From positions 4,996 through 68,995 of the IMG/VR virus record IMGVR_UViG_3300048848_000129: DNA of 64,000 nt, one strand, 5' to 3'. This stretch comes from a virus. A model generated the notes under the pieces. The model saw only the letters and a program-made list of their open reading frames with translations, did not search any database and had not been told where the DNA came from. Position numbers and translations under genes: made by a program. Below, piece after piece: positions 685-60,402 of the stretch. The stretch's first letter is position 1. Every line of letters begins with the position of its first letter.

Positions 685-2096
685 ACAAAGCAAACATCCG
701 CTGGAACACTGTGGGCAGGGAAGACCTGCTCGATGTGCTGCTGGGCGAGCACCGTCCTCAGGGACTCAGCGCGTCTAGTTTTCCGTTGCTCGAGTCGAAG
801 GAAGGGCAGCTTGCGCTCGGCTATCCTGAAGCTGCAGCGTTCGAATCGTACTCCCCACCGTCGCTTGTAGTGATAAACGACGATGTAGTGGCGGACACGC
901 TATCTTGGTTGCGAGTGTATGCAGGTGAGGCGTCGCCGATCAGCCAATTTGCCAGGGTTGTGCTAGCAAGTGACTGGCAGACGTTTGGCGAGGGAACCGG
1001 AAGCCTCCGGTTGGAGGATGGCCGTTCTGATCGTTGGGCGTGTGTGACAGTCGGAGAGGCAATGGCTCAAACCGACGGTGACGCCGACTTTCACAATATG
1101 CCGCTTTCGCGGCTAACCAGTTGTCTCTCGATGCCCGTTGGCCGATCCTCTTTGCTCTTCGGTCAGGGAGATTCGACTCGGATTTGTGTCGATCGACTTC
1201 GCGCAGTTGCTTCTGATAGCCGGTTTGGTCGGCGAGCGGTTTCTGTCGACGAGCTTGCGCCTGTCTGGGCTATTGCTGGCTCCCATATGCCAGAGCACGT
1301 GCCAGCTGAAGACGCGGCCTTGCTGGTAATGGAGGCGGCGTCCCGCCATTTTCAAACCGCAGCCCCGAACGCTCGCTTGTTCAGTGCCAATCAGCTCAGA
1401 GGCTTTCCGGGATTGTCGAGCGACTCAGTAGAGGAGCGCGTGGTCGCCTTCAATCGCCTCTCACTGGAAATCCTCCAAGAAAACTCGTCGCAAGTCGATG
1501 GCGTGGTTGGTCCCGTTTTGGCCGCAGCAGCGTTCCTCGTTGGAAGAAGCACGTCCCACGCCTTTCTACTTAAACGCGTCGCCCGTGTTTCGCCAGTCGC
1601 TTCCGTTTGGTTTGGTGCAATGGCAGCGCTTGCCGGTCCGCGTGCATGGGATGCGACTTGGCTGCGTGCCGTGAAAGGCGCTGAGCGTCTACTGCGAGCA
1701 GAATTCAGCTGGCTGAATGCACCTAGTGCCGACATTTGTTGGGCAGAGTTCGCTTGGCTTGCAGGAAAGTTTGGCGACCTCGATCAGCTGATTAGTCTTC
1801 CGAAGATGCTGCCAAGGACTCTTAGTATTGAGGTAGTGCCTGGCACCATACTACAGGTTCGTTTTGGCGCTGGAACGGTCGAGCCTGATACTCGCACTAC
1901 AAATAGCGCGACGATTCGTGAACGGGCCCTGCAGGACGCATTGGCTCAGTTCGTTTCGCTTGCGCAGCGCGTCAAAGGCCTTGTCGACAAAGGGCCAGTC
2001 GCTGCTAGCGGCCAGCAATCGCTGAACTTGGGGAGCGAATCGAGCACCTACTTTAAAGCCCGCCCGAAAAAGAGGCGCGATGTCGGTGATACTTAG
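681..2096 (+). CDS. Hypothetical 471-aa protein, translationally coupled to the helicase; possible defence component
   Basis: ATGA overlap with the helicase stop; long ORF with lower GC than the phage genes; no motif recognised. Confidence 0.75.
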   Translation: MNKANIRWNTVGREDLLDVLLGEHRPQGLSASSFPLLESKEGQLALGYPEAAAFESYSPPSLVVINDDVVADTLSWLRVYAGEASPISQFARVVLASDWQTFGEGTGSLRLEDGRSDRWACVTVGEAMAQTDGDADFHNMPLSRLTSCLSMPVGRSSLLFGQGDSTRICVDRLRAVASDSRFGRRAVSVDELAPVWAIAGSHMPEHVPAEDAALLVMEAASRHFQTAAPNARLFSANQLRGFPGLSSDSVEERVVAFNRLSLEILQENSSQVDGVVGPVLAAAAFLVGRSTSHAFLLKRVARVSPVASVWFGAMAALAGPRAWDATWLRAVKGAERLLRAEFSWLNAPSADICWAEFAWLAGKFGDLDQLISLPKMLPRTLSIEVVPGTILQVRFGAGTVEPDTRTTNSATIRERALQDALAQFVSLAQRVKGLVDKGPVAASGQQSLNLGSESSTYFKARPKKRRDVGDT

Positions 2097-2325
2097 CAGA
2101 CCCGCATGAGGCAACTGCATCGTCCAGATCGTGAGTCACTCTCACCCACGGATAAGGTGAACGTCCAACTTTTAGCTTGCCAGATATTTCTGATGGGACG
2201 CTGATCGCCATTACTCGATTCGGGTGATCTAGTTTTTGCGGACCGACGTCCTGACCGTGAACATTGCGCCCATGTCATCGACTGAAGCGAGGCGAATTTC
2301 TACAAACTGCGTCGTCGCGACTTGG

Positions 2326-8377: not shown

Positions 8378-8776
8378 TCACAGCGTGTTGTCGTTGATGG
8401 TGATCGCCAGCACCGAAAGCTCTTGGTCCGGCATCACGTCCACGTTGCTCATGGTCATGTCGCCGCCGCCGCCGGGCAGTGAGACTGTGCCCTGTATGTG
8501 GCACACGTCGGAGCCGCTGTAGACCCGGAAGTGGCCGATGACGCCGGGCACCATGGAGAAGTTGGAGATGAAGATGTCCGGCCGCTTCACCTTCGTGCCG
8601 CCGCTTGCGTCCTCAAGCCAGTTGGTGACGCCGAACATCTCCGAGACCAGGGTGCCCGTCGACGCCGCTGCGCAGTTCGCCGGAGGCGAGCCCGTAAAGA
8701 GCCGGATCGTCGGGCCACCAATGATGGCCTCGATCTGGTCCAGCCGTGCGTTGGCAGCGGCAACGCTCAGCTGCAT
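8378..8776 (-). CDS. Virion structural protein, paralog family A (copy 4)
   Basis: MQLSVAAANARLD..IRLFTGSPPANCAAASTGTL..HFRVY..QGTVSLPGGGGDMT; clearly similar to the adjacent gene. Confidence 0.8.
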   Translation of the reverse strand: MQLSVAAANARLDQIEAIIGGPTIRLFTGSPPANCAAASTGTLVSEMFGVTNWLEDASGGTKVKRPDIFISNFSMVPGVIGHFRVYSGSDVCHIQGTVSLPGGGGDMTMSNVDVMPDQELSVLAITINDNTL

Positions 8777-8778
8777 GG

Positions 8779-9186
8779 TCAGGCGTTGCCGTCCGTCAGC
8801 GTGAAGCCGGTCACGGTGAAGGCCTGGCCAGCCGCGAAGCTCGTGTTGTCCACGGTCATGTCGCCGCCGCCGCCCGTCAGCGTCACGGTGCCCTGCAGGT
8901 CGCAGGTGGTGCCGTCGCTGCGGTACAGGCGGAAGTGGGCAGCGGTTCCGGCCGCGTCGGCCGACAGGTCTTCCCAGGTGCCGCTCTTGGCCTTGGAGCC
9001 GCCGCTGGCCGCTGCCATGTAGTCGGCCGGCAGGTTCAGCGTGGCCAGCACGGTGCCCGCATCGGCCGCCGCGCAGTTGGCCGGCACTGCGCCGCTGCGG
9101 ATCTTCAGGATGGCGCTGGCGCCCAGCGTGGTCTCGATGCTGTCGAGGCGGGCATTGCGAACTGCTGCGCTGAACTGGATGGTCAT
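8779..9186 (-). CDS. Virion structural protein, paralog family A (copy 3)
   Basis: LKIRSGAVPANCAAADAGTVLA..GTAAHFRLY..QGTVTLTGGGGDMT. Confidence 0.82.
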   Translation of the reverse strand: MTIQFSAAVRNARLDSIETTLGASAILKIRSGAVPANCAAADAGTVLATLNLPADYMAAASGGSKAKSGTWEDLSADAAGTAAHFRLYRSDGTTCDLQGTVTLTGGGGDMTVDNTSFAAGQAFTVTGFTLTDGNA

Positions 9187-9195
9187 GGTGCTCTC

Positions 9196-9822
9196 TCAGG
9201 TAAGGGGGGTGGTCACTTCGGATTCGACGGAGATGCGCCCGGCCAGGATGGCGAACACCGCGCCCTCCGGTGACTCCAGCTCGAGGTCGTAGACCCCGGC
9301 TTTCCAGTCCAGCGCCTCGGTCGCGGCGGCCGAGATCTCCACGGTGATCGTCTTGGCGACGTCGTCGAGGGTGATGGTGATGGGACCAGCAGCCAGGCTG
9401 GTCAGCAGGACCGGCCCGCCGACCTTGGAGCGCACCGACATGCGGGCCGTGTACGCCACCAGGTCGTGCGGCGAGTACCACTGCAGGAAGCCGGTGTTGA
9501 TGCGGTGCCGGCCAAACTGGCCGCCGCTCACCGGGTTGAACTCGATCGTGGTCTCGTCGATGACCGATGCGCGCCGGAAGTCACTTTCGCGGGGCGGGTT
9601 GGATGCGGCGTTCAGGTCGGTGAGCCCTTGGGCATCTACAACCGCGACGCGCCAGCCTTGCACGATCCCGTGCGGGGCTTGCGTCGCGACGCGCACGGGG
9701 CCGGAGTTCGCAATGGATGCGATCTGCGCGAACTTGAAAGGCTCGCACTCCCAGCGCACGGTCTCGCGGAACGTGCTGCCGCGGCGAATGCAAAGGTCGT
9801 GAAGGGTGGGCCTGTTGCTCAT
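9196..9822 (-). CDS. Virion/tail-associated protein
   Basis: Clean ORF directly after a late promoter; C-terminal GVYDLEL..ILAGRISV resembles baseplate/fibre adaptor domains. Confidence 0.65.
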   Translation of the reverse strand: MSNRPTLHDLCIRRGSTFRETVRWECEPFKFAQIASIANSGPVRVATQAPHGIVQGWRVAVVDAQGLTDLNAASNPPRESDFRRASVIDETTIEFNPVSGGQFGRHRINTGFLQWYSPHDLVAYTARMSVRSKVGGPVLLTSLAAGPITITLDDVAKTITVEISAAATEALDWKAGVYDLELESPEGAVFAILAGRISVESEVTTPLT

Positions 9823-10501: not shown

Positions 10502-10654
10502 GTGGAAACCTTCGTCTTCTACCTGCTGGTCATCGGCGGCGTGCTGTTCTTCAAGCTGACGACCGGCCAGCAGCGCGCCGTCTGGGCCTGGGACTTCTGG
10601 ACCGCCCTGCTCATCCTGGGCGGCCTGGGCTTTGTCTACGAGCTACTGCACTGA
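10502..10654 (+). CDS. Small two-TM membrane protein (50 aa; not in the ORF track)
   Basis: GTG start; METFVFYLLVIGGVLFFKLTTGQQRAVWAWDFWTALLILGGLGFVYELLH; strong GC3 bias; opposite strand to the late operon. Confidence 0.65.
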   Translation: METFVFYLLVIGGVLFFKLTTGQQRAVWAWDFWTALLILGGLGFVYELLH

Positions 10655-13600
10655 CGCGGTCTGCGCGACGCGGTTGCGCCGCTCCTCGATCTCGTCCAGC
10701 CTGACCCGTTTCTCGTCCGCCGACAGCGTGCGGCTCGCCTCCACCATCCGCGCCTGCTGGTTGATCTTGGCCAGTTGCTCCTTGGCGTGGGTCACGCGCC
10801 GGCGCGCCAGCAGGTTGCCGCCCTCCTCCTCGCGGATCTGCGCGGCCTTCTCGGTGTCGCCGCGCTTGAGCGCATCCCGGTAGCTGGCATAGGCCTGGTC
10901 GACCTCGCGGGCCCGGTCATACAGCTGCGTGACGTAGCGGCTGCTGCCGCTGGGCAGCGACTCGACGAAGTTGCCAGCCACGAAGGCATCGCGCAACTCC
11001 ATCGCCGGTCGCTCGCCGCGGTCCATGGCCGGGCGCAGGGCGCGATCGCCCAGCTGCGCCGCCGTCGTGCCCACCCAGCCGAAGTAGCCGCGCAGCAGGA
11101 AGTCGATCTGCTTGGGGCTCAGCCCCGAGTATTCGCCCTTGGCCAGCTGCACGGGATCCGGCAGTCCGAGCTGGCCCAGGAAGCGCGCCACCTCGGTGGT
11201 GCGCTCGCCGGACCGGTCCTGCGGGCGCAGCCGCTCGTCGGACATGCCCTCGATCGCGCGGCCCGTGAAGCTGTCCTTGTTGGCGTAGACGTCCAGCAGC
11301 GGCTTGATGATCTGCGGCGTCGGGTCCATGGCGAAAGTGCCGAAGACCATGTCGCTGATCCGTTTGCCGAAGCGCTTGCCCGTCATCTCGTCGTTGAACA
11401 GCAGCTCGGCGCTGCGCTCGGCGATGGTGCCGATCGCGCCCAGCTCGAATGGCTTGGGGATGCGGAAGGCAGTGCCGCCGACCTTGAACCACCAGTAGGC
11501 GTCGCGGTCCCAGTCCTCGCGCTTCTTCCAGTCGTCGTCATCCTGGTAGGCGGCCATCAGTCCCAGGCTGGCCAGTGACACAGCCGCGGCCATGGTGCCG
11601 AAGCGCCGCGGGTCCTCCGCCGCGGCGCGGCCCAGCTTGTACAGGCCCTGGAGGCGGGCATTGAAGAACGGCACCGACTGGCCCAGCAGGCGAACCGTGG
11701 GCCAGGCGCCGGACAGGCTGAAGTCCATCAGGTCGCGCGCCATGAACGAGGCCTCGGCATGGCTGCGGCCCTTCTTCACCAGCTGCTCGTAGAGCGCGCC
11801 CCGGTTGACGTTCTCCATGCGGTCGCCGAACTCCTCGTAGGCGCCCCAGACCGTGCGCACCTGGTCGGCCAGCTTGCGCCAGCCTTCCTTGTCCAGGACT
11901 TGGCCGCCCAGCTTCTCGACCTGGGCGCGCAGCCGCGCGCTGTTCTCCTGCGTGCCAAAGCGGATGGTGCCGCCGCTGGCCAGCATGCTGGCGTAGATCT
12001 GCGAGTCCGCGGCCGTGGCCTTCCAGCCGCCGGCCACGTTGCGCAGCGGGTTGTAGGACAGGTCGGCCTGGCTGATCGCCGACAGGCTGTCGCGGATCAG
12101 ATTGCGGATCTTGAAGGTCGGGTTCACGGTGACCGTGTAGGTCAGGATGTTCTTCATGGCCGCCAGCGGCTTCATCAGCGGCGACGGCGTGTAGTGCAGC
12201 GCGGCCACGGCGTCCAGCAGGTAGGGATCCTCGACGGCCCAGTGCTCTGCCACGCCGGCGCGCAGCACGCGCACGGCGCCCTTCGTGCCATCCGGCACCT
12301 GGTGCGCGACGGCCAGGCGCTCGGCGGCATCCATGGTGGCCTGCGCCGCCCGGTTGCGCGCCGCCGCGCTGTACAGGTGCGACCAGTTCAGCAGCATGTT
12401 CTCGAGCAGATCGGCGTTCAATTGCTGGCTGCCGCCCTTGAGCTTCTTGAAGGCCTGCTGGTTGACCAGGCCGCTGCTGAACTTCGGCCCCTTCATGTCG
12501 CCCTCCTCCATGACCCGGTAGAACGGGACATAGGGCTGGTCCTTGAACAGGGCGCGCGCCTCGGGGTCGATCAGGCCGGACTGCTCGGCCATGGCCAGCA
12601 CGCTGTCGTTGAAGGCGTTGAGGTCGCGCAGCGCCTTGGCGTAGACCGGCGTGCGCGCCGTGCCGTCGTCGAAGCGGCCTGCGTTCAGCGTCTTCAGGGC
12701 GCCGATGTCCTGCGAGGTGAACAGGTTCTCTTTGCCCTCGGCCTGCAGCCGCTCCGCGCGGTGGGCAGCCACCCACATGAGGAAGCGATCGTGCTCACCC
12801 TTCAGGCTGGCCAGCACCTGGGCAAAGCCGCCGTCCTTCACGTCGACGTCGGGCGCGCCGTCCCGCAGGAACGGGCGGCCATACATCAGCGCCGCCTCCA
12901 TGGTGCCGTCGCTTCCTTTGGACAGGCGGGCCTGCATGTAGGCCTCGGCGCTGATTTCCTTGATGGGCGCGAACTGGTCCAGGACGCCCTGGCGAACCTT
13001 GGTGCCCAGATTGGCCCGCAGCGCGTCGAAGCGCTCCTTAAGCGTGGGCACCTGGCGCAGTTGGGCCACACGCTTCCAGGCCGCCTCCTGCGCCGGCGAC
13101 ATGGCGCCCATGGCAGTGCCGGCCGCCGCCTTGCTGGACATCGGAGCGTCTGCGTCGGGGCCGTCCAGCTTCATGGAAAGCAGCTCCCGCAGTACACTGG
13201 CCACCTCCCCCGAGGTGACCTTGCCGGATCGCTCCACGCTGCCACCAGCGTCAGCCCCGGAATCCCAGGCCCTCCGGGGAGCCTGCCTTTCCTGCGCGCC
13301 CCTTACAATTGGGGCGTCTCCTGGACGCCACCGACCGTTTTGCTCGGGCACTGCTTCGGCGCTGCCAGCTTCGGAATTGAGGGGCTTCAGGAGACTTTCT
13401 TTTGTGGCCACGCTGTGCAGGTACATGCGCTGCGAGTTCGGGTCACGTCGCACCAGCACCGTCACGATGTCGTCCACGCCCTGGACCTTCACGGGCGCGC
13501 TGACGTAGTGGCTGTCCACCCGTCCCTCGGTCGCCGACAGCACCACCTTCCCCTCTCGGAGCACCGCCGGCACGGCGGCGAACGCCTCGGCCTTGAACGG

Positions 13601-16600
13601 GCTCATGCGGTGGCCCATGGAGTCCTTGACGGCCCGGCCGTCCAGCACCACGTCGCCCAGCACCGGGTGCGTGGCCTTGCCGCCCGCATCCTCAAAGAGC
13701 TTCGTCGCCCAGGCTCGCAGCGCCGGGTAGCCCTTCGGCGCCTGGCTACCTGGCAGGTCCATGATGGCGGCGCCCTGTAGAAAGCGCGCCTTCTCGGCGT
13801 CCGGCACCGCGCTGACCGCGGCGCTGATGGCGCGCGCGCTGACCGGCACCGCGCTGCTGGGCACGCGCTCGGCGGCCGGGCCGCGCTCGATGAAGCCGCG
13901 CGCCGGCAGCAGGAAGTTGCGGACGATCTCGGCGTCCGAAAGCGCCAGGCCGCCCAGCGCTGGAATGTTCTCGCGCAGCCAGGTGCGGATGGCGGCGATC
14001 GCGCGGCGCACGAGCGGCAACTGCGGGTTCTGCTCGGCCAGCTCGGCCAGCACCTCTTCCGCGGCCATGCGGCGCTGCCGCTGGTTGCCCACGTCGAAGC
14101 CGTAGTCGGCGGCCTTCGCCCGGACCTGCTCTGCACGCGCCGTGGCCACCTGGTCCAGCACGCTGTTCAGGGCCGGCCCGAAGAAGCCGCGCAGGCCGGC
14201 ATGGCCCAGCGCCTCGTGGAACAGCACGCGCTGTGCCTCCGCGGAATCCTGCAGGAAGTCGGTGAAGAGGTAGACGGTGCCGCCGTAGAAGCTGCCGTTC
14301 GGCACAACAGCGCCGGGCCGCGTGTAGTGCTCGCGCACGCGCGGGTGCACGCCGGCAGCGCTGGGGTTCGCAACGACGATGACCGGCGGCGCGTTCTTCC
14401 AGCCTGCCACCGTCTGCTCGACAGCTCTGCGGATCTCGGCGACGCGCGGCGACGCGGCGCGCGCAGCCTGGGCGCCGGCCCCTGAGGCGCTGGAGAGCAC
14501 CACGTTGCCGTCATCTGCGGTGCGCGCCTCCAGCACGCCCAGCATGCGGTCGAAGGCGGCATTGATCTCGACGCGTTCGCGCCCGGCCGGGTACGGCCGT
14601 TTCCAGCCCCACGGCGTCAGGATGGCAGCGCCTTCCGGCGCGTGGTTCAGGAACGGACTGCGGCCGCCGCGCTCGGCAATCCGGTCCTCCACATAGCCCT
14701 GGAATGCGCGGGCCGCCAGTTCGTGCGGGGTGGTCCAGTAGTCGCTGCCGCGGCCTTGGTCGAGGCTGCGCGCGTCCATCGCGAAGTCGGTGGGCACGCG
14801 GCGCTCTGCCGTCGCCTCCTTCTGGGCATCGGCCAGCATCTTCAAGCGCTGGCTGTAGCGGCCCATGTGGTCCCGCAAGCCGTCCAAGGTGCCATTGCGG
14901 TTCGTGCTGTCGAAGCCACTGCGGCCCCGCACGGCCTTGTAGATGGCACTGATCTGCTCGAGCGCGTCGTTGGTCCAGCGCCAGCCGGTCAGCCGCCCCT
15001 TGCTGGCGGTGCCGCTCGCGCGCGCTTCCGTCTCCAGCGCAACACCGTCGACGATCGGCTTGGCCAGGGCATCGAATGCCCCCAGCTGCTCCGGCGTGGC
15101 TGGCTTCGTGAAGCGCTGGCCATAGGTTTTCTCGGAAGCGAGATCCTTGCGGATGCCGTCCAGGCTGCGCGCGACCTGCTCGCGGGTCTGCGCGACGAAG
15201 GCTTCGGCCTTGGCGCTGTCCTGCACAAAGCGCTCGGCCTTGTAGACCATCGTGCGCATGACGTGCTCGTAGGCCTCCCGAACCTCAGCGCGCACGCCGG
15301 AGTCGCGCCGGCTGAACCCGCCGCTGGCCATGTCGAACTCGCCGCCCAGCGCCTTCAGCGTGCGCGTGCCGTCGGCCTGGGTGGTCCACTGCGCAGCGGC
15401 CTTGCCATCCTGGCGGCCCAGGTAGTGGTCCAGCGCATGGAACCACTCGTGCGCCAGCGCGCCCGCGCCCTTCATCTTGGTGAGGTTGATGACGGCCCGC
15501 TCCTGCTCGTAGTGGGCCCTTGCGGAGTTCAGGCCCTGGCCGCGCGCCCCGAAGGCCAGCGCCAAGTCGCCATTGAGCGAGATCGCCCGCGGCGGGATGC
15601 CGACCACTTCGGCCAGATCCAGCAGCCCGTCGTAGGCCTCGTTCATCAGCTCCTGCCGCTCGGCCTGGTTGTTCCAGTTGCCGAACTCCACGCCGCGGAA
15701 ACCGAACGTGTCACGGAACGCCTGGCCGTCCACATCGCCTTGCCGACGCTCCGGTCCTTCCCGGCGCTTGTTCTCCGGCACCGGCAGGTCGGCCTCTCCG
15801 AAGGTGGTGTTGGTTTCGATGATGGCGGCGGCGTTGTTGGCCATGAAGGCCTGCGCAGCCTCGCGGCTGTCGAAGGTCTGGTCCACCACCTTGACGCGCT
15901 TGCGGTCGGTGACGTCGCGCCAGATCTCCCACTGCCCGGCCGCCAGCGGCACCGGGCGGTGCTTCATGGCCACTGCCAGCGCTGGCAGGGCCGCCTCCGC
16001 TTCCTCGCGCGTGGCGAACGACTGCCGGCCGAGCTGGCGGTCCTGGCCCAGCCTGTCTTGGCTGCGGCCGTCGCGGACCACCCATCGGCCCTCTTCACCG
16101 GCGCGCATGCTCTTGGCGATCTGGTCGATCTTGAAACGGCGGGCCCAAGCGGGCCGGTCGTCGTCGTTGGTGCGCCGAGGCTTGGCGGTGGCCGCGGCCG
16201 TGCCGCGCGTTGCGGCGTCCTTGCGGGCGCCGCCGATCTTCTCGCCGATGTCCTCGATCGCGCCGGGCGCTACGCCGCCCCCGCCGGCGTTGGCAGCCGA
16301 CCGCCACGTCGCGGTACGGTTAGGGCCTGTGCCTTCGTCATTCCGCCTTGGTTGATCCGGTAGTGGAGCGTCGACGGAACCAGCCCGACCTCCTCTGCCC
16401 ACGCCGCCAGTGTCCGAGTTCGGCCGTCGTGCGACAGCAGCACGTTCTTCCGCTGGTTGCGTGCCTGCTCCTTCTTGGTTGCCCACTGCACGTTGCCCGG
16501 CTGGTACGGCAGGTCGTTCTTGATCCTGTCGAGCGAGTGCAGAAGGCTCGGCCTCGATCCCACGCCGGCCAGGAACGCGGGAAAACTGTCCCGCCACTCC

Positions 16601-19033
16601 GGACAAAGCGTCACCCCCCTGCCCCCGTAGTTGTGGAAATACGGGTTGTTGGGGTTGCCGCACCGGTCCTTGACGTTGCTCCACAGCTTGTACAGCGGGT
16701 GTCGACTCAGCCCGTGTTCCTGGTACCGCGTTCGCACTGCGCACTCCTCTTGCTTGAGCGGCAGGCAACTTCGATTGCTCCCGATCCGCCGCCCAGTTTC
16801 TGAACTCCTCGATGGACATCTCCGTGACCGGTCCCACCTTCCAGCCAGCGTCGAAGTTCGATCGGTATGCCCGCAGGGCCGCAAGCCGGTTCGGGAAACC
16901 CAGCATCGCCTTCACTTCGTCGAAGCCGCCGGTCTGCTGGTCCAGTTGGTCGACGACGAACACCTTCTGGCTCTCCGGCTTCGGGCCGACGTACACATCG
17001 ACCTGGTCGCCGTCGGCGCCCTCGGTGCGGCGGATGTAGCCGTAGTGGTCGCTCATCTCGTGCGACCAAGCTGTTCCGTCGGGACCGGTGCCGCTGCGCG
17101 TGCTGCCCTTCGGGTTCTCGACGCTGATGTCCATCCCGGCCACCTTGATTCGGCCCTTCTTGTAGTTGCCCGCCTCTTTCTGCGCCTGCGTCGGCTCGGG
17201 CAGATCGTTGATCGGCGACGTGGCCGCGGCATGCGCGGCCTGGTCCAACGGCGTGGTCGGCGCAGGCAGCGCGCGCCGCGCTAGTGCCGCGCCAGCCCCT
17301 CCTGCTCTTAGAGCCAGATCACCTTGGCCAGGGGCCACAGCGGCTCCGGCAGCGGAACGGACTCCCGCCTCGGGTCCGCCGAGTTGCGGGCGTCCTGCAC
17401 CGCCCAGGCCTGGGCCAGCGTCAGCACGCTGTCCAGCACCATCTTTTGCAGCCAGTCCTCCAGGCTCGCCAGTTGCGCCATCAGCAGCTCCTTCGATACG
17501 GCGGACGTTCCAGCCGCCTTCCACACGCACGGGCTCATGGCCGGCGCCAGCCTCGCGCGCCAGCTTGCCGGCGCGAATGCGGTTCGTCGGTTGAGGCAGC
17601 AGGTCGACGGGCCGGGCCACACCGTCGGCGCCCAGCTCCAGCGTCTCCCCTCGCGCTGGCCCAGGCTTCACCTGCTCCACTGGCGTGAGCGGCGGCATGC
17701 CAAGGTCGGCGCGGCGCTGCGCTTCGGTTTCTTCCACGGCCTGCTGCTCGCCCAGTACCTGCTGGCGGTTGATGGCTTCCGCGCGGGTCTCCTGCCGCAC
17801 GGTGCCGTCGGCGTCCGCGATCAGCGTGTCGGTGGGCGCGGTGTCGTAGGCCAGCGCGGGCGGCGCGGCGTACTCGAGCGCGGGCTGCAGCTCGGGCGCC
17901 GGGAACGGCGCGGCGGCCGGCGCGTCTTCGCTGTTGCGGCCCTGGCCCATGGCACCCGTTTCCATGGGGCCCGGCGCGTCGCGCTCGGCCTGGCGCTGAT
18001 CGGCAGTGCGTGCGGTCCCATCGCCGTCCACGGTGACGGTGGGTGCCGGCAGCGCCAGCGTGGCGCCGTTGTCCACGGCCGTGGCCGCCGCGGCCGACAA
18101 GGGGCCAGCGTTCGGATCCAGGCCCATGCGCCGCGACGGCGGCACCGCGCCAGCGCCTGCGCCCATGACACCACCGGCCAGCGAGCCCTCGACGACGTTG
18201 CGCGCCATGCCCTCGGTCAGGTCCTTGCCCTCGGCCCAGTTCTGCGCGCCCTGCTCCACCGCGGACTGCGCCGCTTCTTCGGCCGCTTCATGCGCAGCGC
18301 CGCTGGCAACCCGGCCGGCCACGCCCGGCGTGCGCGCTGCCTGCGCGATCGCGCCGCCGGCCAGTGTGGTGTCGATGTCGCGCACGCCCATGCGCGCGGC
18401 AATGCGGCCGCCGACGGCGCCAGCTGCAGCACCAGCAGCACCGGTGCCCAACGCCGCCAACGCGGCCTTCTGCGGGTCCACCTGGTCGTCAATCTGGTCC
18501 ATCTGCTGGCCAGCCATGACGGCGCCCTCGCCCAGCGCGGCGCGCGCCGGCGCCGAAGCCAGGCCGGCCAGGCCAGCCACGCGCCCGGCGACGCCGCCGG
18601 CCACGATGCTGGGCACGCTCTGCACGACGTTCAGCGCCGTGGCGCGCGGGTTGCGCAGGTAGGCGCCGGCCACGTCCAGCGCGCCGGCGTTCGGGTCGGC
18701 CCAGGCCTGGTCGATGTCGGCGCGCGCGGCCTGCGTCTCCGGCGAGTACTGCTGCGCGGTCTCCAGCGCCCACTTGCCGGGCTGGAAGCCGGTCACCTCG
18801 CCCAGGCGTTCGGCGGAGCGCGACACCGGCCGGTTCATGCCGGCCAGGCTCAGCGGGATGTCGGCCAGGCCGGTCAGCGCGCCGGGCAGCTGCTGCACGC
18901 CCTGCTTGAGCGCCGTGCCGAAGTCCGACATCAAGCCCTTGTTGGAGGGCGGCGCCATGGTGCCGGACTCCCAGTCGGGCTCGGCTGCGGCCGGTGGGGC
19001 CATCTGGCCCTTTTCCCAATCGATTTCAGCCAT
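10643..19033 (-). CDS. Giant polyvalent internal virion/ejection protein (2796 aa): inorganic-pyrophosphatase-like, LPD5/LPD1-like with HExxH, second zincin, LPD3-like and LPD38-like domains
   Basis: PTQAQKEAGNYKKG..HYGYI..DGDQVDVY..FDEVK; EDIGEKIGGARKD; GVEFGNW..LAHEWFHALD; HELAARAF; HEALGHAGL..EEVLAE; YLHSV; WWFK..FRIPKPFELG. Confidence 0.85.
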   Translation of the reverse strand: MAEIDWEKGQMAPPAAAEPDWESGTMAPPSNKGLMSDFGTALKQGVQQLPGALTGLADIPLSLAGMNRPVSRSAERLGEVTGFQPGKWALETAQQYSPETQAARADIDQAWADPNAGALDVAGAYLRNPRATALNVVQSVPSIVAGGVAGRVAGLAGLASAPARAALGEGAVMAGQQMDQIDDQVDPQKAALAALGTGAAGAAAGAVGGRIAARMGVRDIDTTLAGGAIAQAARTPGVAGRVASGAAHEAAEEAAQSAVEQGAQNWAEGKDLTEGMARNVVEGSLAGGVMGAGAGAVPPSRRMGLDPNAGPLSAAAATAVDNGATLALPAPTVTVDGDGTARTADQRQAERDAPGPMETGAMGQGRNSEDAPAAAPFPAPELQPALEYAAPPALAYDTAPTDTLIADADGTVRQETRAEAINRQQVLGEQQAVEETEAQRRADLGMPPLTPVEQVKPGPARGETLELGADGVARPVDLLPQPTNRIRAGKLAREAGAGHEPVRVEGGWNVRRIEGAADGATGEPGGLAAKDGAGQRADAGPGLGGAGRPQLGGPEAGVRSAAGAAVAPGQGDLALRAGGAGAALARRALPAPTTPLDQAAHAAATSPINDLPEPTQAQKEAGNYKKGRIKVAGMDISVENPKGSTRSGTGPDGTAWSHEMSDHYGYIRRTEGADGDQVDVYVGPKPESQKVFVVDQLDQQTGGFDEVKAMLGFPNRLAALRAYRSNFDAGWKVGPVTEMSIEEFRNWAADREQSKLPAAQARGVRSANAVPGTRAESTPAVQAVEQRQGPVRQPQQPVFPQLRGQGGDALSGVAGQFSRVPGRRGIEAEPSALARQDQERPAVPAGQRAVGNQEGAGTQPAEERAAVARRPNSDTGGVGRGGRAGSVDAPLPDQPRRNDEGTGPNRTATWRSAANAGGGGVAPGAIEDIGEKIGGARKDAATRGTAAATAKPRRTNDDDRPAWARRFKIDQIAKSMRAGEEGRWVVRDGRSQDRLGQDRQLGRQSFATREEAEAALPALAVAMKHRPVPLAAGQWEIWRDVTDRKRVKVVDQTFDSREAAQAFMANNAAAIIETNTTFGEADLPVPENKRREGPERRQGDVDGQAFRDTFGFRGVEFGNWNNQAERQELMNEAYDGLLDLAEVVGIPPRAISLNGDLALAFGARGQGLNSARAHYEQERAVINLTKMKGAGALAHEWFHALDHYLGRQDGKAAAQWTTQADGTRTLKALGGEFDMASGGFSRRDSGVRAEVREAYEHVMRTMVYKAERFVQDSAKAEAFVAQTREQVARSLDGIRKDLASEKTYGQRFTKPATPEQLGAFDALAKPIVDGVALETEARASGTASKGRLTGWRWTNDALEQISAIYKAVRGRSGFDSTNRNGTLDGLRDHMGRYSQRLKMLADAQKEATAERRVPTDFAMDARSLDQGRGSDYWTTPHELAARAFQGYVEDRIAERGGRSPFLNHAPEGAAILTPWGWKRPYPAGRERVEINAAFDRMLGVLEARTADDGNVVLSSASGAGAQAARAASPRVAEIRRAVEQTVAGWKNAPPVIVVANPSAAGVHPRVREHYTRPGAVVPNGSFYGGTVYLFTDFLQDSAEAQRVLFHEALGHAGLRGFFGPALNSVLDQVATARAEQVRAKAADYGFDVGNQRQRRMAAEEVLAELAEQNPQLPLVRRAIAAIRTWLRENIPALGGLALSDAEIVRNFLLPARGFIERGPAAERVPSSAVPVSARAISAAVSAVPDAEKARFLQGAAIMDLPGSQAPKGYPALRAWATKLFEDAGGKATHPVLGDVVLDGRAVKDSMGHRMSPFKAEAFAAVPAVLREGKVVLSATEGRVDSHYVSAPVKVQGVDDIVTVLVRRDPNSQRMYLHSVATKESLLKPLNSEAGSAEAVPEQNGRWRPGDAPIVRGAQERQAPRRAWDSGADAGGSVERSGKVTSGEVASVLRELLSMKLDGPDADAPMSSKAAAGTAMGAMSPAQEAAWKRVAQLRQVPTLKERFDALRANLGTKVRQGVLDQFAPIKEISAEAYMQARLSKGSDGTMEAALMYGRPFLRDGAPDVDVKDGGFAQVLASLKGEHDRFLMWVAAHRAERLQAEGKENLFTSQDIGALKTLNAGRFDDGTARTPVYAKALRDLNAFNDSVLAMAEQSGLIDPEARALFKDQPYVPFYRVMEEGDMKGPKFSSGLVNQQAFKKLKGGSQQLNADLLENMLLNWSHLYSAAARNRAAQATMDAAERLAVAHQVPDGTKGAVRVLRAGVAEHWAVEDPYLLDAVAALHYTPSPLMKPLAAMKNILTYTVTVNPTFKIRNLIRDSLSAISQADLSYNPLRNVAGGWKATAADSQIYASMLASGGTIRFGTQENSARLRAQVEKLGGQVLDKEGWRKLADQVRTVWGAYEEFGDRMENVNRGALYEQLVKKGRSHAEASFMARDLMDFSLSGAWPTVRLLGQSVPFFNARLQGLYKLGRAAAEDPRRFGTMAAAVSLASLGLMAAYQDDDDWKKREDWDRDAYWWFKVGGTAFRIPKPFELGAIGTIAERSAELLFNDEMTGKRFGKRISDMVFGTFAMDPTPQIIKPLLDVYANKDSFTGRAIEGMSDERLRPQDRSGERTTEVARFLGQLGLPDPVQLAKGEYSGLSPKQIDFLLRGYFGWVGTTAAQLGDRALRPAMDRGERPAMELRDAFVAGNFVESLPSGSSRYVTQLYDRAREVDQAYASYRDALKRGDTEKAAQIREEEGGNLLARRRVTHAKEQLAKINQQARMVEASRTLSADEKRVRLDEIEERRNRVAQTASVQ
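16270..16737 (-). CDS. HNH-like (homing-endonuclease family) protein nested in the +1 frame of the giant gene
   Basis: GAGGAG 6 nt before GTG; HGLSRHPLYKLW..RC.NPN..YGGRGVTLCPEWRDSF..SLDRIKN..YQPGNVQWAT..Q.RN; C-terminal TLAAWAEEVGL..TLHYRI. Confidence 0.85.
   Translation of the reverse strand: MRTRYQEHGLSRHPLYKLWSNVKDRCGNPNNPYFHNYGGRGVTLCPEWRDSFPAFLAGVGSRPSLLHSLDRIKNDLPYQPGNVQWATKKEQARNQRKNVLLSHDGRTRTLAAWAEEVGLVPSTLHYRINQGGMTKAQALTVPRRGGRLPTPAGAA
17308..17481 (-). CDS. Nested 57-aa protein in the +1 frame of the giant gene
   Basis: AAGGAG 6 nt before ATG; MAQLASLEDWLQKMVLDSVLTLAQAWAVQDA..LPEPLWPLAKVIWL; the host frame reads as Gly/Ala linker here. Confidence 0.6.
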   Translation of the reverse strand: MAQLASLEDWLQKMVLDSVLTLAQAWAVQDARNSADPRRESVPLPEPLWPLAKVIWL

Positions 19034-19042
19034 GTATCGTCC

Positions 19043-20860
19043 TCAACGGGGAACCCACTTGGACCCGTCCCACGTGGCGGTGCGCCCGTTGACGGTGGAG
19101 GTCGTGCCGACCGGGCGCTGCTGGCCCCCGGCGGGTTGCGCGCCGCCCTGCTGCACGAACTGGCCGGTCTGGTTGTTGAACACCGACGACGCCTGCCGGT
19201 TGCCCATGTCGTCGGTGCCCCCCGGCACCACGGTGAAGCGCGGCGCCGGCGTGGACCCCTGCAGCGCCTGCAGCGTGGCCTGCGCCTGCGAGCGCGCCTC
19301 GGGCGTCTGGGCGTTCAGGAAGGCCTGCTGGGCCTGCAGCACATTGCCGCGCGTGCCGGCATCCAGCGCCGCAGCGCCAGCCTCGATGCCGAGCCGGCCT
19401 GCTGCCAGACGCTGCGCGGCTCCGTTGTTCTGGGCGGTGATGGCTTGGCCAGCGCGTTCCGTCTCCGCGCGGATGCCGGCCACGTCCGTGTCGCCGAGGT
19501 TGCGCATGCCGAGCTGCTGCACAGCCCCCAGGCGTTGCACCTCCGCCTGCGCCTGGGCGCGCGCCGGGCTGTTGACGATGCTGCTGGCCCCCGTCTGTGC
19601 GTTGCGCAGGTCCTGGCGGCTTTGCCAGTCGGTGCCTGGCGCCTGCCGATAGACCTGCGGCTGGGTGCCGCCGGGGATTTGCGCGGCGCCGAAGCCCAGG
19701 CCCGAACCGCCAGCGGCGGGTGCGCCCATGAAGCCGCCGCCGGGTTCGCGGCCGTTGACGGTGATGTCGCCGCGCACGGGCCCCGTGGCGCTGTAGCTGT
19801 TGCCCACGCGCGTGACGTTCGAGCCGCCGGGCTGCTGTGGCGTGAAGCCGGCCGGCGCTACCTGGGCCGCGCTGCTCAGCGCTCCAGCTGCGCCAGCAGC
19901 AGGCGCGCGCACTGGTGCGGGCGTGGGAGATGCGGCGGGCTGGGCGGGCGCCGCTGGGCTGCTGTCTGCGGCGTTGGCAATGCCGATCGCGCCGGCGACC
20001 GGTGTTCCGTAGGGCAGCGCCCCGGCCACCGCCCCGCGCACGCCGCTGGCGGCGGCGTCGAAGCCGCGCGCAGCTGCCAACGTGCGCACCGCGCCCAGCG
20101 CAGGCGCGGCACCAGGCAGCGCCGCCAGGGAGTTGCTGACGTTGCGGCCCAGCTCGGTGCTGTCGATGCGGTTGCCGTCGGGTGCAGGCCTGTACCCGGT
20201 GGTCGGGATCTGCTGCACGCCGCTCGGGCGCGCGGCGGCCGCGTCGCCGAAGCTGTTGGGGCGGCCCTGCTCGTCCTCCCCGACGACGCCGCCGGTGGCG
20301 AACGCAGGGGTGCCGCCCGGGATGGGCTTGAAGCCGGACGCGCCGCGCGTGGCCGCGCGCAGCGCATCGAGCGCCGCCTGGCCGACCTGCTGCACAACCT
20401 CGGGCGACACCGCTGCCTCACCATCCGACAGCAGCACGTCTTCGGTGGTGCTGGCGGGAAGGATGTGCGTTCCGCGCTCCATGCGCGCCGGGATGCTGTC
20501 GCTCGTGGCGGTGCCGGGGCCGTCGATCAAGTCGACCTGGCCAGGATCCACCGGCTCGACCTGGGCGCCGTCGCGCGCTGGTGGGCGCTTGCCGATCTGG
20601 CCGCCGGCCTTGAAGCCGGCCGCGGTCTCCGCCTCCTGCATGCGGCGATCGGCCGGGCCGGTGTTGGTCGGGCTGCGCGTCGGCATGCGCCGCGTGGCCT
20701 GCGGTGAGGCGGCCTGGTCGCCGCCCACGCGCTGGGCCGGATCGGCGTCGTTGGCACGGTCGGGGCCGAAGCCCAGGCCGCGCTGAACGCGGGTGCCGAC
20801 CTCGGCGAGGAGATCGCGCGCGCGCTGGTGTGGTTTGCTGCCTTGCATGTGCTGCCCCAT
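19043..20860 (-). CDS. Internal virion (ejection) protein
   Basis: Ala/Gly/Gln-rich; IDGPGTATSDSIPA motif; precedes the giant gene; start codon uncertain (20860 or 20848). Confidence 0.65.
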   Translation of the reverse strand: MGQHMQGSKPHQRARDLLAEVGTRVQRGLGFGPDRANDADPAQRVGGDQAASPQATRRMPTRSPTNTGPADRRMQEAETAAGFKAGGQIGKRPPARDGAQVEPVDPGQVDLIDGPGTATSDSIPARMERGTHILPASTTEDVLLSDGEAAVSPEVVQQVGQAALDALRAATRGASGFKPIPGGTPAFATGGVVGEDEQGRPNSFGDAAAARPSGVQQIPTTGYRPAPDGNRIDSTELGRNVSNSLAALPGAAPALGAVRTLAAARGFDAAASGVRGAVAGALPYGTPVAGAIGIANAADSSPAAPAQPAASPTPAPVRAPAAGAAGALSSAAQVAPAGFTPQQPGGSNVTRVGNSYSATGPVRGDITVNGREPGGGFMGAPAAGGSGLGFGAAQIPGGTQPQVYRQAPGTDWQSRQDLRNAQTGASSIVNSPARAQAQAEVQRLGAVQQLGMRNLGDTDVAGIRAETERAGQAITAQNNGAAQRLAAGRLGIEAGAAALDAGTRGNVLQAQQAFLNAQTPEARSQAQATLQALQGSTPAPRFTVVPGGTDDMGNRQASSVFNNQTGQFVQQGGAQPAGGQQRPVGTTSTVNGRTATWDGSKWVPR

Positions 20861-34705: not shown

Positions 34706-35818
34706 TCAAGTGGATCGGTTGAGGAAGGCCTCGCGCTGCTCCTCGGACATGGACTCCAAGGCTTCGGCCAGCGCGGGGCCCGACATCGACGCCATCGCTT
34801 CGAACCGGCTGCCTGGCCCTGCTGCTCCACCGGGGATCTCGGAGAGCGATGCGGGGGCCGGTGTCGGCGCAGCTGCGATGGCAGCTCTGGCTGCCGCTTT
34901 CGGGTCCGCTGTGAGAGCGGGAGCCGGTGCGGCCGCCTGGACAGCTCCAGTGGCCTTCTTGAACTCATCGAACAGCTCGATCACCTCGGCCGCCGAGCCG
35001 TTCGCCAGCACGGCCTGGAAGCCGGCGCGGGCGAAGGTCGGCTGTGCACCGATCCACGCTGCCAGCTCCTGGCTCTGCGCGATGGAGTCGGCGTCGGGGT
35101 GGGCCTTGTAGATGGAGCCGTAGTGCGCATCCGATGCTGACGTGGCCTGGCTCTGCTTGAGCGGCACGAGTTCGCCTTGCAGCGTCTCGACCTGCTTCTG
35201 CAGCGCCTGAACGGTCGTCAGCAGCGGCTGCATGCCCTGACCCAGCAGGATGCTGATGCCCTTGGCCAGCGCCTCGTCGGAGAAGTCCCCGAAGATTGCA
35301 GGATCGACGCCTGCCTGGATCGCCTTGTCGGCGGCCGCGGCGTTGGCGTCGGTCTGCGTCGGCTGCAGGCCGGCGTCGGCACGCAGTTGGGCCTGGGCCT
35401 GCAACGCGGCCAGTTCGGCACGGGCTGCAGCGGCATCCGCGCGCGCATCCCGGGCTTCGGTCCTGGCCTCCACCAGCTTGTCGTAGCTGATGGTGTGCTT
35501 GCCGCTCTTGGCCAGGATGACCGCGTTGGACGCGTTCAGGTCGGCCTCGTTGGGCTCGGCGGGCGCCGGTGCCGCAGCAGGAGCAGCAGCCGGCGCGGGC
35601 GCCGGTGCCGCCGTCGCTGCGGCGTCGATGATTTCAGTGGTGCCGCGATCGCCCTGGTCTGCGGCCGTCCCGTCGGTGGCGCTGGGCTCGCCACTTTCCA
35701 GCGCTTGCGCGCCGGTGTCGCCCTCGGTCAGAAGCTCAAGGTATCTGGCCGCGTGTTCCGGGGTCAGCTCGCCATCAGGGGCGTGCGTCTGGAGAAAGTC
35801 CGTTGCGTTGGTTGTCAT
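34706..35818 (-). CDS. Scaffolding protein
   Basis: Acidic, Ala-rich coiled coil between portal and capsid; HPDADSI motif. Confidence 0.75.
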   Translation of the reverse strand: MTTNATDFLQTHAPDGELTPEHAARYLELLTEGDTGAQALESGEPSATDGTAADQGDRGTTEIIDAAATAAPAPAPAAAPAAAPAPAEPNEADLNASNAVILAKSGKHTISYDKLVEARTEARDARADAAAARAELAALQAQAQLRADAGLQPTQTDANAAAADKAIQAGVDPAIFGDFSDEALAKGISILLGQGMQPLLTTVQALQKQVETLQGELVPLKQSQATSASDAHYGSIYKAHPDADSIAQSQELAAWIGAQPTFARAGFQAVLANGSAAEVIELFDEFKKATGAVQAAAPAPALTADPKAAARAAIAAAPTPAPASLSEIPGGAAGPGSRFEAMASMSGPALAEALESMSEEQREAFLNRST

Positions 35819-59609: not shown

Positions 59610-59828
59610 ATGACCACCGCACGCTTCGCTGGCGGCGCGATCGCCAAGCTGCGCGGCCAGATCCACGCCGCCCACTGCAAGCCCGACCAGTTCGCGCCCG
59701 CGCAGACCGAGCGCGGCACGCTGCGCTGCCCCAAGTGCGGCAGCAGCACGCCATACACCTTCAGCCCGAGTGGAGCGATGCAGGCCCGCTGCAGCGCCGC
59801 GGGCTGCCCCGTCCGCTTCACCCAGTAG
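59610..59828 (+). CDS. Small Zn-ribbon protein
   Basis: GTLRCPKCGS...ARCSAAGC. Confidence 0.65.
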   Translation: MTTARFAGGAIAKLRGQIHAAHCKPDQFAPAQTERGTLRCPKCGSSTPYTFSPSGAMQARCSAAGCPVRFTQ

Positions 59829-59841
59829 AAGGAATCCAAGA

Positions 59842-60402
59842 ATGCCAAAGCGCAGCCATGGGATGAGCAAGTCCCCCGAGTTCGCCAGTTGGGAGGCCAT
59901 GATCACACGCTGCTACAACCAGCGGGCGACGTCATACCCCAACTACGGTGCGCGGGGTATCACCGTCTGCGACGAATGGCGCGCCTCGTTCGCGACGTTC
60001 TTCGCCGACATGGGGCCGCGCCCCACCCGCGCGCATTCGATTGACCGCATCGACAACGAGCGCGGCTACACCCCTTCCAACTGCCGGTGGGCTACGCCAG
60101 CTGAGCAATCGCGCAACAAGCGCAACACCGTGCGAGCGCCTGGCTACGAGGTCTCCACCGTCAAGGAGCTGGCCGACAAGGCCGGGATCACCGAGCACGG
60201 AATGTGGCAGCGCATCAAGAGCGGCAAGTCCCCCGACATGCTGCGGCCATCGCTGCGGCGCGGCAGCATCTCGCACAACGGCACGACCGACACCATCCGC
60301 GGCTGGGCCAAGAGGACGGGAATCAACTACTCGACCATCACAAAACGCCTGCAGGCCGGCTGGTCGGTCGAACGAGCACTGACTGGAGTCGCACCATGCT
60401 GA
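59842..60402 (+). CDS. HNH-like homing-endonuclease-family protein (same family as the nested gene)
   Basis: HGMS..W..M..RC..YGARGITVCDEW..SIDRIDN..YTPSNCRWAT..Q.RN. Confidence 0.85.
   Translation: MPKRSHGMSKSPEFASWEAMITRCYNQRATSYPNYGARGITVCDEWRASFATFFADMGPRPTRAHSIDRIDNERGYTPSNCRWATPAEQSRNKRNTVRAPGYEVSTVKELADKAGITEHGMWQRIKSGKSPDMLRPSLRRGSISHNGTTDTIRGWAKRTGINYSTITKRLQAGWSVERALTGVAPC

Follow-up and report, generated by a model that had tools for sequence, protein, structure and literature searches.

The giant gene and the reading frames within it

The window analysed here is a 64,000-nucleotide (nt) stretch of viral DNA (positions 4,996 to 68,995 of IMG/VR record IMGVR_UViG_3300048848_000129, a virus record of 68,995 bases that is rated complete), and our subject is a single giant gene on its minus strand together with two small genes that lie inside it in another reading frame. 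A sequence-only reading of the window had described a 2796-amino-acid (aa) open reading frame (ORF) without a stop codon, in which two ORFs in the +1 frame flank a pyrophosphatase-like domain, and both parts of this description are borne out: the giant ORF is present on the minus strand at 10643..19033, and nested ORFs stand on both sides of the InPase domain at 16790-17188. The features of the locus, with the basis of each in brackets, are as follows.

10643..19033, minus strand: host gene, encoding a polyvalent virion or ejection-type protein (single uninterrupted 2796-aa ORF; translation)
17488..17493, minus strand: AAGGAG, Shine-Dalgarno sequence of nested gene 2, 6 nt ahead of its ATG (sequence)
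17308..17481, minus strand: nested gene 2, +1 frame, 57-aa helical protein (six relatives, codon signal); start ATG at 17481-17479, stop TAA at 17310-17308 (sequence)
16790..17188, minus strand: InPase (inorganic-pyrophosphatase-like) domain in the host frame, aa 616-748 (Pfam PF18823)
16744..16749, minus strand: GAGGAG, Shine-Dalgarno sequence of nested gene 1, 6 nt ahead of its GTG (sequence)
16270..16737, minus strand: nested gene 1, +1 frame, 155-aa HNH-endonuclease-family protein (phrog_3377, relatives, codon signal); start GTG at 16737-16735, stop TAG at 16272-16270 (sequence)
15734..16258, minus strand: first part of the conserved host module that follows, from aa 926 to about 1100 (comparison with homologous giant proteins; start-codon scan)

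Pfam recognizes in the giant protein, besides InPase (PF18823, aa 616-748, E 2.4e-55), the domains LPD1 (aa 1424-1503), LPD3 (aa 1770-1871) and LPD38 (aa 2499-2683), and its PHROG matches include DarB-like antirestriction and virion structural proteins; a word-indexed search in which 8000 candidates were scored returned 1927 homologues at E<=0.001. The presence of InPase, LPD1, LPD3 and LPD38 in one ORF is the combination of many unrelated effector and LPD domains in a single phage polypeptide that marks this class, and by the usage of Iyer et al. (2017; PMC5512222) the predicted product is a polyvalent protein of the phage type. These authors propose that polyvalent proteins are independent units which are cut apart by built-in peptidases. 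A 15,278-nt contig in sequencing run X2, which is labelled as an organism and not as a metagenome, spans 14500-19100 and is 98.5% identical to the window (69 differences over 4601 bases, with zero gaps); a cultured host carrying a near-identical prophage probably exists.

Nested gene 1 lies 52 nt downstream of the InPase domain, with about 11-12 nt between its stop codon and the next conserved module, and its bases also encode the host linker of aa 766-921. The 155-aa HNH-like ORF with GAGGAG 6 nt upstream is there as had been described; it starts with GTG and not with ATG. Its product matches the PHROG 'HNH endonuclease' family phrog_3377 over residues 5-145 (E 7.7e-47), as well as phrog_374, phrog_2081 and phrog_953, which bear the same name. 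Among 138 candidates there were 87 database relatives at E<=0.001, up to 76% identical, most of which are about 150 aa long and annotated as separate genes. An alignment of 31 family members spans the predicted start to stop and contains 17 invariant residues, all of them present in the full-length window ORF; those in the HNH motif region are R71, N74, Y78, N82, W85, Q91 and N94, and H8 near the N-terminus is nearly invariant. The AlphaFold model of the product has a mean confidence (pLDDT) of 86.6, and structure comparison describes its C-terminal part as helix-turn-helix-like; against the I-TevI DNA-binding domain this part gave a VIA-align Z of 2.7, and PADLOC returned for it a single weak match, 'mad1' (E 0.0013). 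The family is widespread in phages, with 1098 records, 45 of which are from Mycobacterium phages. The window itself holds a second, longer member, free-standing in the early region at 59770-60402 on the plus strand, which is 39% identical over residues 6-132 and ends in two C-terminal helix-turn-helix-like repeats.

Nested gene 2 lies about 120 nt upstream of the InPase domain, and its bases also encode the host linker of aa 518-575. The earlier account of a 57-aa helical ORF with AAGGAG 6 nt upstream was accurate: the ORF and its Shine-Dalgarno sequence are present, and four short helices are predicted (pLDDT 78.9). Six relatives of 66-75 aa were found at E<=0.001, the best of them 72% identical over all 57 residues (E 3.8e-17), and the window protein ends about 9 residues earlier than these relatives. 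No Pfam, PHROG, NCBIfam or PADLOC family and no usable Atlas match were found for the protein, and the best Foldseek match of its model had E 2.1; no relative was found in cultured phages, nor in the viral_contigs set when it was searched with the window's own sequence. The gene is not an endonuclease, which is one correction to the earlier interpretation; we commit only to a predicted conserved, small helical protein that travels with these linkers. Directly after its TAA there is an AGGAGG sequence (17300-17305, minus strand) with no host-frame start within 45 nt; the nearest one, TTG at 17248, coincides with the first position of the conserved InPase region.

The two nested stretches stand out from the rest of the giant gene in their codon signal. 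GC content at third codon positions (GC3) is about 0.9 in the host frame and falls to 0.42-0.5 over both of them, where GC at host position 1 rises to 0.86-0.96. A frame-specific check of GC3 had been suggested with the original description, and in a log-odds scan of codon usage over all 2796 codons the +1 frame beats the host frame only at 17578-17230 and 16798-16260, that is, over the two nested stretches and nowhere else in the giant ORF. ORFs in alternative frames are common in a window with 68% GC, and the others in the giant gene, such as one of 412 aa at 11538-12776, show no coding signal. The claim that the host frame reads as low-complexity linker exactly over the nested ORFs also agrees with its composition, which is G/A/R/P/Q-rich (G 16, A 15, R 12, P 10 and Q 10% over the HNH ORF; G 29 and A 24% over the 57-aa ORF). 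The sole other place where the host frame does not score best is 13229-13363 (minus strand), where no frame scores positive and which coincides with the AT-richer 'doubled tail' after LPD3. A scan of 15800-18000 for promoters and terminators found no promoter-like site and one terminator-like site on the opposite strand, and was uninformative.

Selection on the nested frames and their recurrence in other lineages

The closest comparison for the giant protein is with P0004, a protein of 2917 aa that is 81% identical to it over aa 1-1300. In the host frame the identity between the two drops to 0.62 over the HNH stretch, against 0.88-0.91 in its flanks. Fifty-one replacements in this stretch can be explained by a single base change, and in the HNH frame 39 of these are silent, 9 are replacing and 3 are ambiguous; correspondingly, changes at host positions 1 and 2 stand at 39:9 over the HNH gene and at about 1:1 elsewhere, in a test that is inferred from protein differences and to which host-silent changes (HNH position 2) are invisible. 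The excess of silent changes and the lower host identity together indicate that the HNH frame is constrained and the host frame is not. The proposed check for purifying selection thus succeeds for the HNH frame, as judged from these protein differences, yet P0004 is still one open protein. As an illustration only, the listed differences between the window and the run X2 contig fall at host position 3 outside the insert, with three at host position 1 inside it (16306, 16309 and 16321). Alignments of homologous giant proteins, which had been proposed as a check for clean in-frame indels, show variable content between the end of InPase, marked by a motif shared with the window, and the equivalent of the module at aa 926, ranging from a gap of about 35 residues (P0012) to whole extra domains, and it is exactly this gap that the HNH gene fills in the window.

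The three closest loci for which DNA is available were found by similarity to the HNH protein only (L103, 73%; L104, 64%; L023, 61%), and all three touch polyvalent-type genes. L104 (Thermomonas sp. S9) has an open frame of 2703 codons or more with InPase, N6-methylase and SNF2 domains, and the HNH gene lies inside it in the +1 frame, directly before InPase. In L103, a metagenome-assembled genome of Rhodoferax, the ORF that contains the HNH gene, again in the +1 frame, has 903 codons and an N-terminus homologous to that of the window protein. The arrangement in L023 (metagenome, 58% GC) differs: an ATGA overlap joins the end of the InPase gene to the start of a free-standing HNH gene, whose other frame contains 10 stops, and an unrelated tail-collar gene with its own Shine-Dalgarno sequence and TTG follows. 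The two best cultured phages are the Ralstonia phages Gamede and GP4, in which an HNH homologue lies in the +1 frame inside a coding sequence (CDS) annotated as 'DarB-like antirestriction' and is itself unannotated in RefSeq.

Gamede NC_054958.1 (L184), 8968-9519, +1 in the DarB-like CDS: HNH-family ORF of 184 codons, AAGGAG before ATG
GP4 NC_054964.1 (L185), 8968-9519, +1 in the DarB-like CDS: HNH-family ORF of 184 codons, AAGGAG before ATG

The nested HNH copies in L103, L104, Gamede and GP4 are intact. The small gene recurs as well. A homologue found via P0211 is +1-nested in a 2223-codon open frame of viral contig L183, with a GGAGG site and the same GC flip, and in L103 a homologue of the 57-aa gene in the +1 frame precedes the HNH gene (hidden Markov model, HMM, E 7e-9). 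In L004 and L008, +1 ORFs with coding signal lie directly before InPase; they are possible relatives of the 57-aa family, which they resemble weakly, with an HMM E of 0.032 for L004 and 0.012 for L008 and hhalign probabilities of 17% and 75%, respectively. Judged by conservation and codon signal, these data show both nested frames to be real, conserved genes. Two further ORFs were seen in the same loci. In L104, the codon signal flips to +1 a second time at 8415-8696 (plus strand) over an ORF of about 95 codons without a PADLOC family match, possibly a third kind of nested passenger; in L183, a 109-codon +1 ORF at 1791-2120 (plus strand), 120 nt after the nested small gene, has its highest GC at host position 1 and stays below the codon-score threshold.

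The probability that the host frame is stop-free over an HNH gene was calculated exactly, given the HNH protein and its synonymous codons, with either the host's codon usage or the gene's own. With host usage it is 0.018 for L104, 0.016 for L103, 0.024 for Gamede and 0.007 for GP4, and with own usage 0.035, 0.087, 0.003 and 0.008, respectively; the product over three independent lineages is of the order of 1e-5. For comparison, the corresponding frame contains 0-5 stops in each of 17 control homologues that are free-standing and have GC3>=0.75, and only one of them (L040) is stop-free, which puts the chance for three stop-free lineages at about 2e-4. Such low values in three independent lineages lead us to conclude, from codon statistics, that the host frame is kept open by selection across lineages. 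It had been suggested that GC-rich third positions of the passenger keep stop codons out of the host frame; this is insufficient alone, since with a chance of roughly 0.007-0.02 in other lineages an active avoidance of stops is needed. An open frame by chance is accordingly rejected for the family, by the recurrence and by the 1/17 control, and not for the window taken alone. We do not use as evidence a Fisher test on T at 'risk' synonymous sites (0/82 in nested copies, against 28/289 at other sites and 44/458 in the 17 controls), because it is circular: nested copies were recognized by their stop-free frame. L040 and L072, which are stop-free in a host-like frame, lie outside long conserved genes and were taken as chance cases.

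The distribution of the HNH gene is sporadic. A search for its host-frame 'shadow' found four giant proteins in the database (P0003, P0004, P0223 and P0224), against 1927 homologues scored, and none of five InPase relatives on viral contigs carries it. The shadow lies directly after InPase in P0223 and directly before it in P0224, both of which are giant InPase proteins. On a tree of InPase domains at least two gains or losses of the HNH gene are forced, and the window's InPase falls inside a well-supported clade of HNH-less domains; 91 of 124 rows had been dropped from this tree beforehand as more than 90% identical, and four of the six HNH-bearing rows sit on long branches of uncertain place. 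The position of the gene varies, on either side of InPase or without InPase, and the GC content of the cassette is 65.6% against 70.9% for the host gene. Mobility of the HNH cassette is thus supported by its sporadic distribution, by the gains or losses on the tree, by its variable position, by its lower GC and by the second, free-standing paralogue in the same phage. Joint mobility of InPase and HNH is not supported: the HNH-bearing InPase domains are not a clade, and their clustering was no stronger than in 177 of 500 shuffles.

Probable dual coding and the alternatives to it

We put at about 0.78 the probability that the window presents a case of dual coding, in which an HNH-family gene and a small conserved gene occupy the DNA of the two interdomain linkers that flank InPase. 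Ribosomes starting at the giant gene's ATG would traverse both nested genes in a register shifted by one base, and the resulting G/A/R/P/Q-rich filler would act as linker only and carry them into the downstream domains, while other ribosomes would start internally at the Shine-Dalgarno sequence and start codon of each nested gene and produce the HNH and 57-aa proteins. Selection would act on amino acids in the nested frame and, in the host frame, only against stops and loss of frame; high GC3 would make an open host frame cheap without being sufficient alone. Nested gene 1 is probably a free-standing homing-type endonuclease, and from the sequence comparisons we infer the translation of both frames, the nuclease activity and the homing origin of the insertion, the nuclease activity of the predicted product being likely but unproven.

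Several results weigh against this interpretation. Taken alone, the window is unremarkable: exact resampling of synonymous codons puts the chance of an open host frame over its HNH gene at 0.16 under host usage and at 0.057 under the usage of the gene itself, the empirical rate for stretches of 155 codons is 523/1696 windows (0.31), and over the 57-aa gene the chance is 0.5-0.66. Moreover, the window was chosen as open and the shadow search finds only open cases, so that the unbiased sample consists of L103, L104 and the Gamede/GP4 lineage. The predicted selection on both nested frames was found for the HNH gene and not clearly for the 57-aa gene, in which 6 changes relative to P0004 are silent and 9 replacing and which may be fast-evolving or decaying in one lineage. 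The assignment of the HNH product also has gaps, with no match in Pfam (E<=0.01), NCBIfam (E<=0.1) or the PDB sequences (E<=1). Its model found I-HmuI as the best Foldseek match, at a weak E of 0.74, and PacI (3m7k_A) as the best VIA-align match, with a Z of 5.8 that lies below the caution line of 8 and a root mean square deviation of 4.4 over 77 residues. The HNH motif consists of a catalytic His and metal-binding Asn/His residues, and in the motif region of the 31 aligned members Asn residues are retained but no His is invariant, so that the general base is not identifiable.

This last point bears on an alternative which accepts dual coding but takes the HNH-family product to have been domesticated by the phage as a DNA-binding protein or regulator, which may lack nuclease activity and whose nested position would merely couple its synthesis to the late-gene mRNA. 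The absence of an invariant His, the helix-turn-helix-like C-terminal part, the purifying selection on the gene in at least two lineages, the free-standing paralogue in the early region of the phage and the very wide occurrence of the family in phage records would all suit such a protein. A sporadic distribution with at least two changes on the tree, a position that varies relative to InPase, homology that ends at the ORF ends and a lower GC are, however, the marks of a mobile cassette, and we regard domestication as unlikely.

The proposal that both frames are translated also depends on the giant ORF being read as one. It might instead be illusory, comprising three or more cistrons (for an N-terminal protein, the small protein, InPase, HNH and a C-terminal protein) in which GC richness leaves the frame open and the downstream parts are made by re-initiation. 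In a window of 68% GC where alternative-frame ORFs are common, the open-frame chances of 0.16-0.31 over the HNH gene and 0.5-0.66 over the small gene allow for this, and in L023 the InPase gene does stop exactly at the start of a free-standing HNH gene (ATGA). But L023 does not show this protein in split form, as its next gene is the unrelated tail-collar gene; the upstream and downstream host parts are always in one frame; and all three lineages found by homology are stop-free, against 1/17 of the free-standing controls. Nor was any candidate for a restart found: host-frame start candidates from 16768 down to 16258 have no well-placed Shine-Dalgarno sequence, the best being a 4-nt GGAG 6 nt before TTG 16768, which is upstream of the HNH start, and no host-frame start with a well-placed Shine-Dalgarno sequence precedes the conserved InPase region, which begins at 17248. 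Restart was thus rejected before either conserved region. The sequence-only reading had noted no stop before the HNH gene and no obvious restart after it, and this is upheld, with no host-frame ATG, GTG or TTG between 16402 and 16108, an interval within which the conserved module starts (16258). The 1870 codons downstream of the HNH gene are intact and conserved and have a strong coding signal, and in the absence of a restart this part would be reachable only by reading through. We consider an illusory giant ORF improbable.

Slightly less probable still is that the nested ORFs are decaying, unexpressed relics, kept because their removal would break the host frame. The small gene, with its 6 silent and 9 replacing changes and an end about 9 residues before that of its relatives, would fit such a history; the HNH ORF, which is full length and retains 17 invariant residues, a strong Shine-Dalgarno sequence and a ratio of 39 silent to 9 replacing changes, would not, and neither would its intact nested counterparts in L103, L104, Gamede and GP4.

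The arrangement had been described as splice-free, and this view is supported by the searches for splicing elements: on neither strand of 15800-18000 did Rfam return a match at E<=1, the Pfam matches of the giant protein at E<=0.01 include neither an intein nor a Hint family, DNA homology among HNH copies stops at the ORF borders, and the flanks of 52 nt and about 11-12 nt leave no room for a ribozyme core. Although HNH genes are often borne by introns, and an out-of-frame endonuclease is described for the dnaX intein cited below, removal of the inserts, either in a group I or group II intron with the HNH ORF inside it or in a similar intein, was rejected as extremely improbable on these results and on the lack of amino-acid constraint in the host frame across the insert, which a splicing domain would need.

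Known systems and the place of the nested genes among them

The mechanism proposed for the nested HNH gene is already in print. Arsenault, Gosselin and Gogarten (2025; PMC11855218) describe a ShiLan-domain 'hidden HNH' within the DNA methylase genes of actinophages. This element is out of frame and free of splicing, and it makes outdated the view that homing endonucleases spare genes only by splicing or by intergenic insertion. The likeness extends to an HNH ORF out of frame in a host gene whose own frame is stop-free across the insert, to the lack of a detected intron or intein, to a sporadic, homing-like distribution and to a GTG start. By the definition of a hidden HNH, an out-of-frame HNH gene in a stop-free host occurs in the window, L103, L104, Gamede and GP4, and in the window it is accompanied by neither a self-splicing intron nor an intein. 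The differences, as far as ShiLan is described there, are also clear. The host gene is a methylase in ShiLan and a polyvalent virion protein here, and the insert sits among highly conserved residues in the former and in interdomain linkers beside InPase in the latter. The ShiLan HNH has 195 aa, flanking zinc fingers and the third frame, whereas that of the window, which is set apart by description, has 155 aa, no zinc fingers and the +1 frame. For ShiLan, where no ribosome-binding site was found, leaderless initiation is invoked, whereas a strong Shine-Dalgarno sequence stands at 6 nt here, and, unlike ShiLan, the window case is accompanied by a second, non-nuclease nested gene.

A second parallel is the cyanobacterial dnaX intein with its out-of-frame LAGLIDADG homing endonuclease (bioRxiv 10.64898/2026.09.14.751524). 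The endonuclease there is reported to lie in an alternative frame of the host ORF and to be under purifying selection, the overlapped host frame being relaxed. The overlapped peptide of dnaX is, however, part of the intein and is spliced out, whereas here there is no splicing element and the filler should stay in the protein unless it is proteolysed. The free-standing homing endonuclease genes of T4-type phages, mob and seg, carry out intronless homing, and they include cases in which the endonuclease gene splits its host gene. They resemble nested gene 1 in being small endonuclease genes with their own translation signals, in a variable spot beside a conserved target and with a sporadic spread, the interdomain linker here playing the role of the intergenic spacer; mob and seg genes sit between genes or split their host, whereas the host ORF of the window continues by way of another frame. 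In phage lambda, Rz1 is embedded out of frame inside Rz, and the two are functional partners with both frames functional. As in the present case, Rz1 is a complete gene with its own Shine-Dalgarno sequence that occupies the +1 frame of a longer, co-oriented gene, but the host frame over the window inserts is filler.

We found no literature on nested genes in polyvalent proteins, although the ShiLan survey tables or the supplements of Iyer et al. could hold cases. The words linker, overlapping, homing and frameshift do not occur in the text of Iyer et al. (2017; PMC5512222), nor does 'polyvalent' in that of the ShiLan paper (PMC11855218). The present case would give the 'hidden HNH' strategy a second, unrelated class of host gene, and it adds to that precedent a clear Shine-Dalgarno sequence and quantitative evidence of selection keeping the host frame open. 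It also implies that a polyvalent protein tolerates about 156 and 58 filler residues dictated by another gene, which fits the idea of independent units put forward by Iyer et al. (PMC5512222).

In the window/P0004 lineage, P0223, P0224, L104 and L023, the HNH gene is an immediate neighbour of InPase, on one side or the other, and such close attachment to InPase borders points to a possible connection of selfish endonucleases with domain shuffling. A wider proposal, which we hold to be doubtful, is that HNH passengers drive the exchange of domain cassettes at polyvalent borders and that the linkers are a general niche for out-of-frame genes. The HNH enzyme would then cut empty alleles, and repair from an occupied copy would lead to exchange of the neighbouring domain cassettes, with the 57-aa gene as a co-travelling helper or immunity factor; if this were true, nested endonucleases would be among the forces behind the domain shuffling by which polyvalent proteins are defined. 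Cultured systems that carry the arrangement or come near it are Gamede, GP4 and the isolate behind run X2.

Gene calling picks up no more than the giant ORF, both in the RefSeq entries of Gamede and GP4 and in the window's own record, and as a consequence a whole class of phage genes is invisible in the databases. The annotation of another relative is of a different kind: in Ralstonia phage AhaGv (OR820515.1), a match to the HNH family with 43% identity lies at 35142-35549 under the annotation 'Rz-like spanin', which is either a mis-annotation or another overlap.

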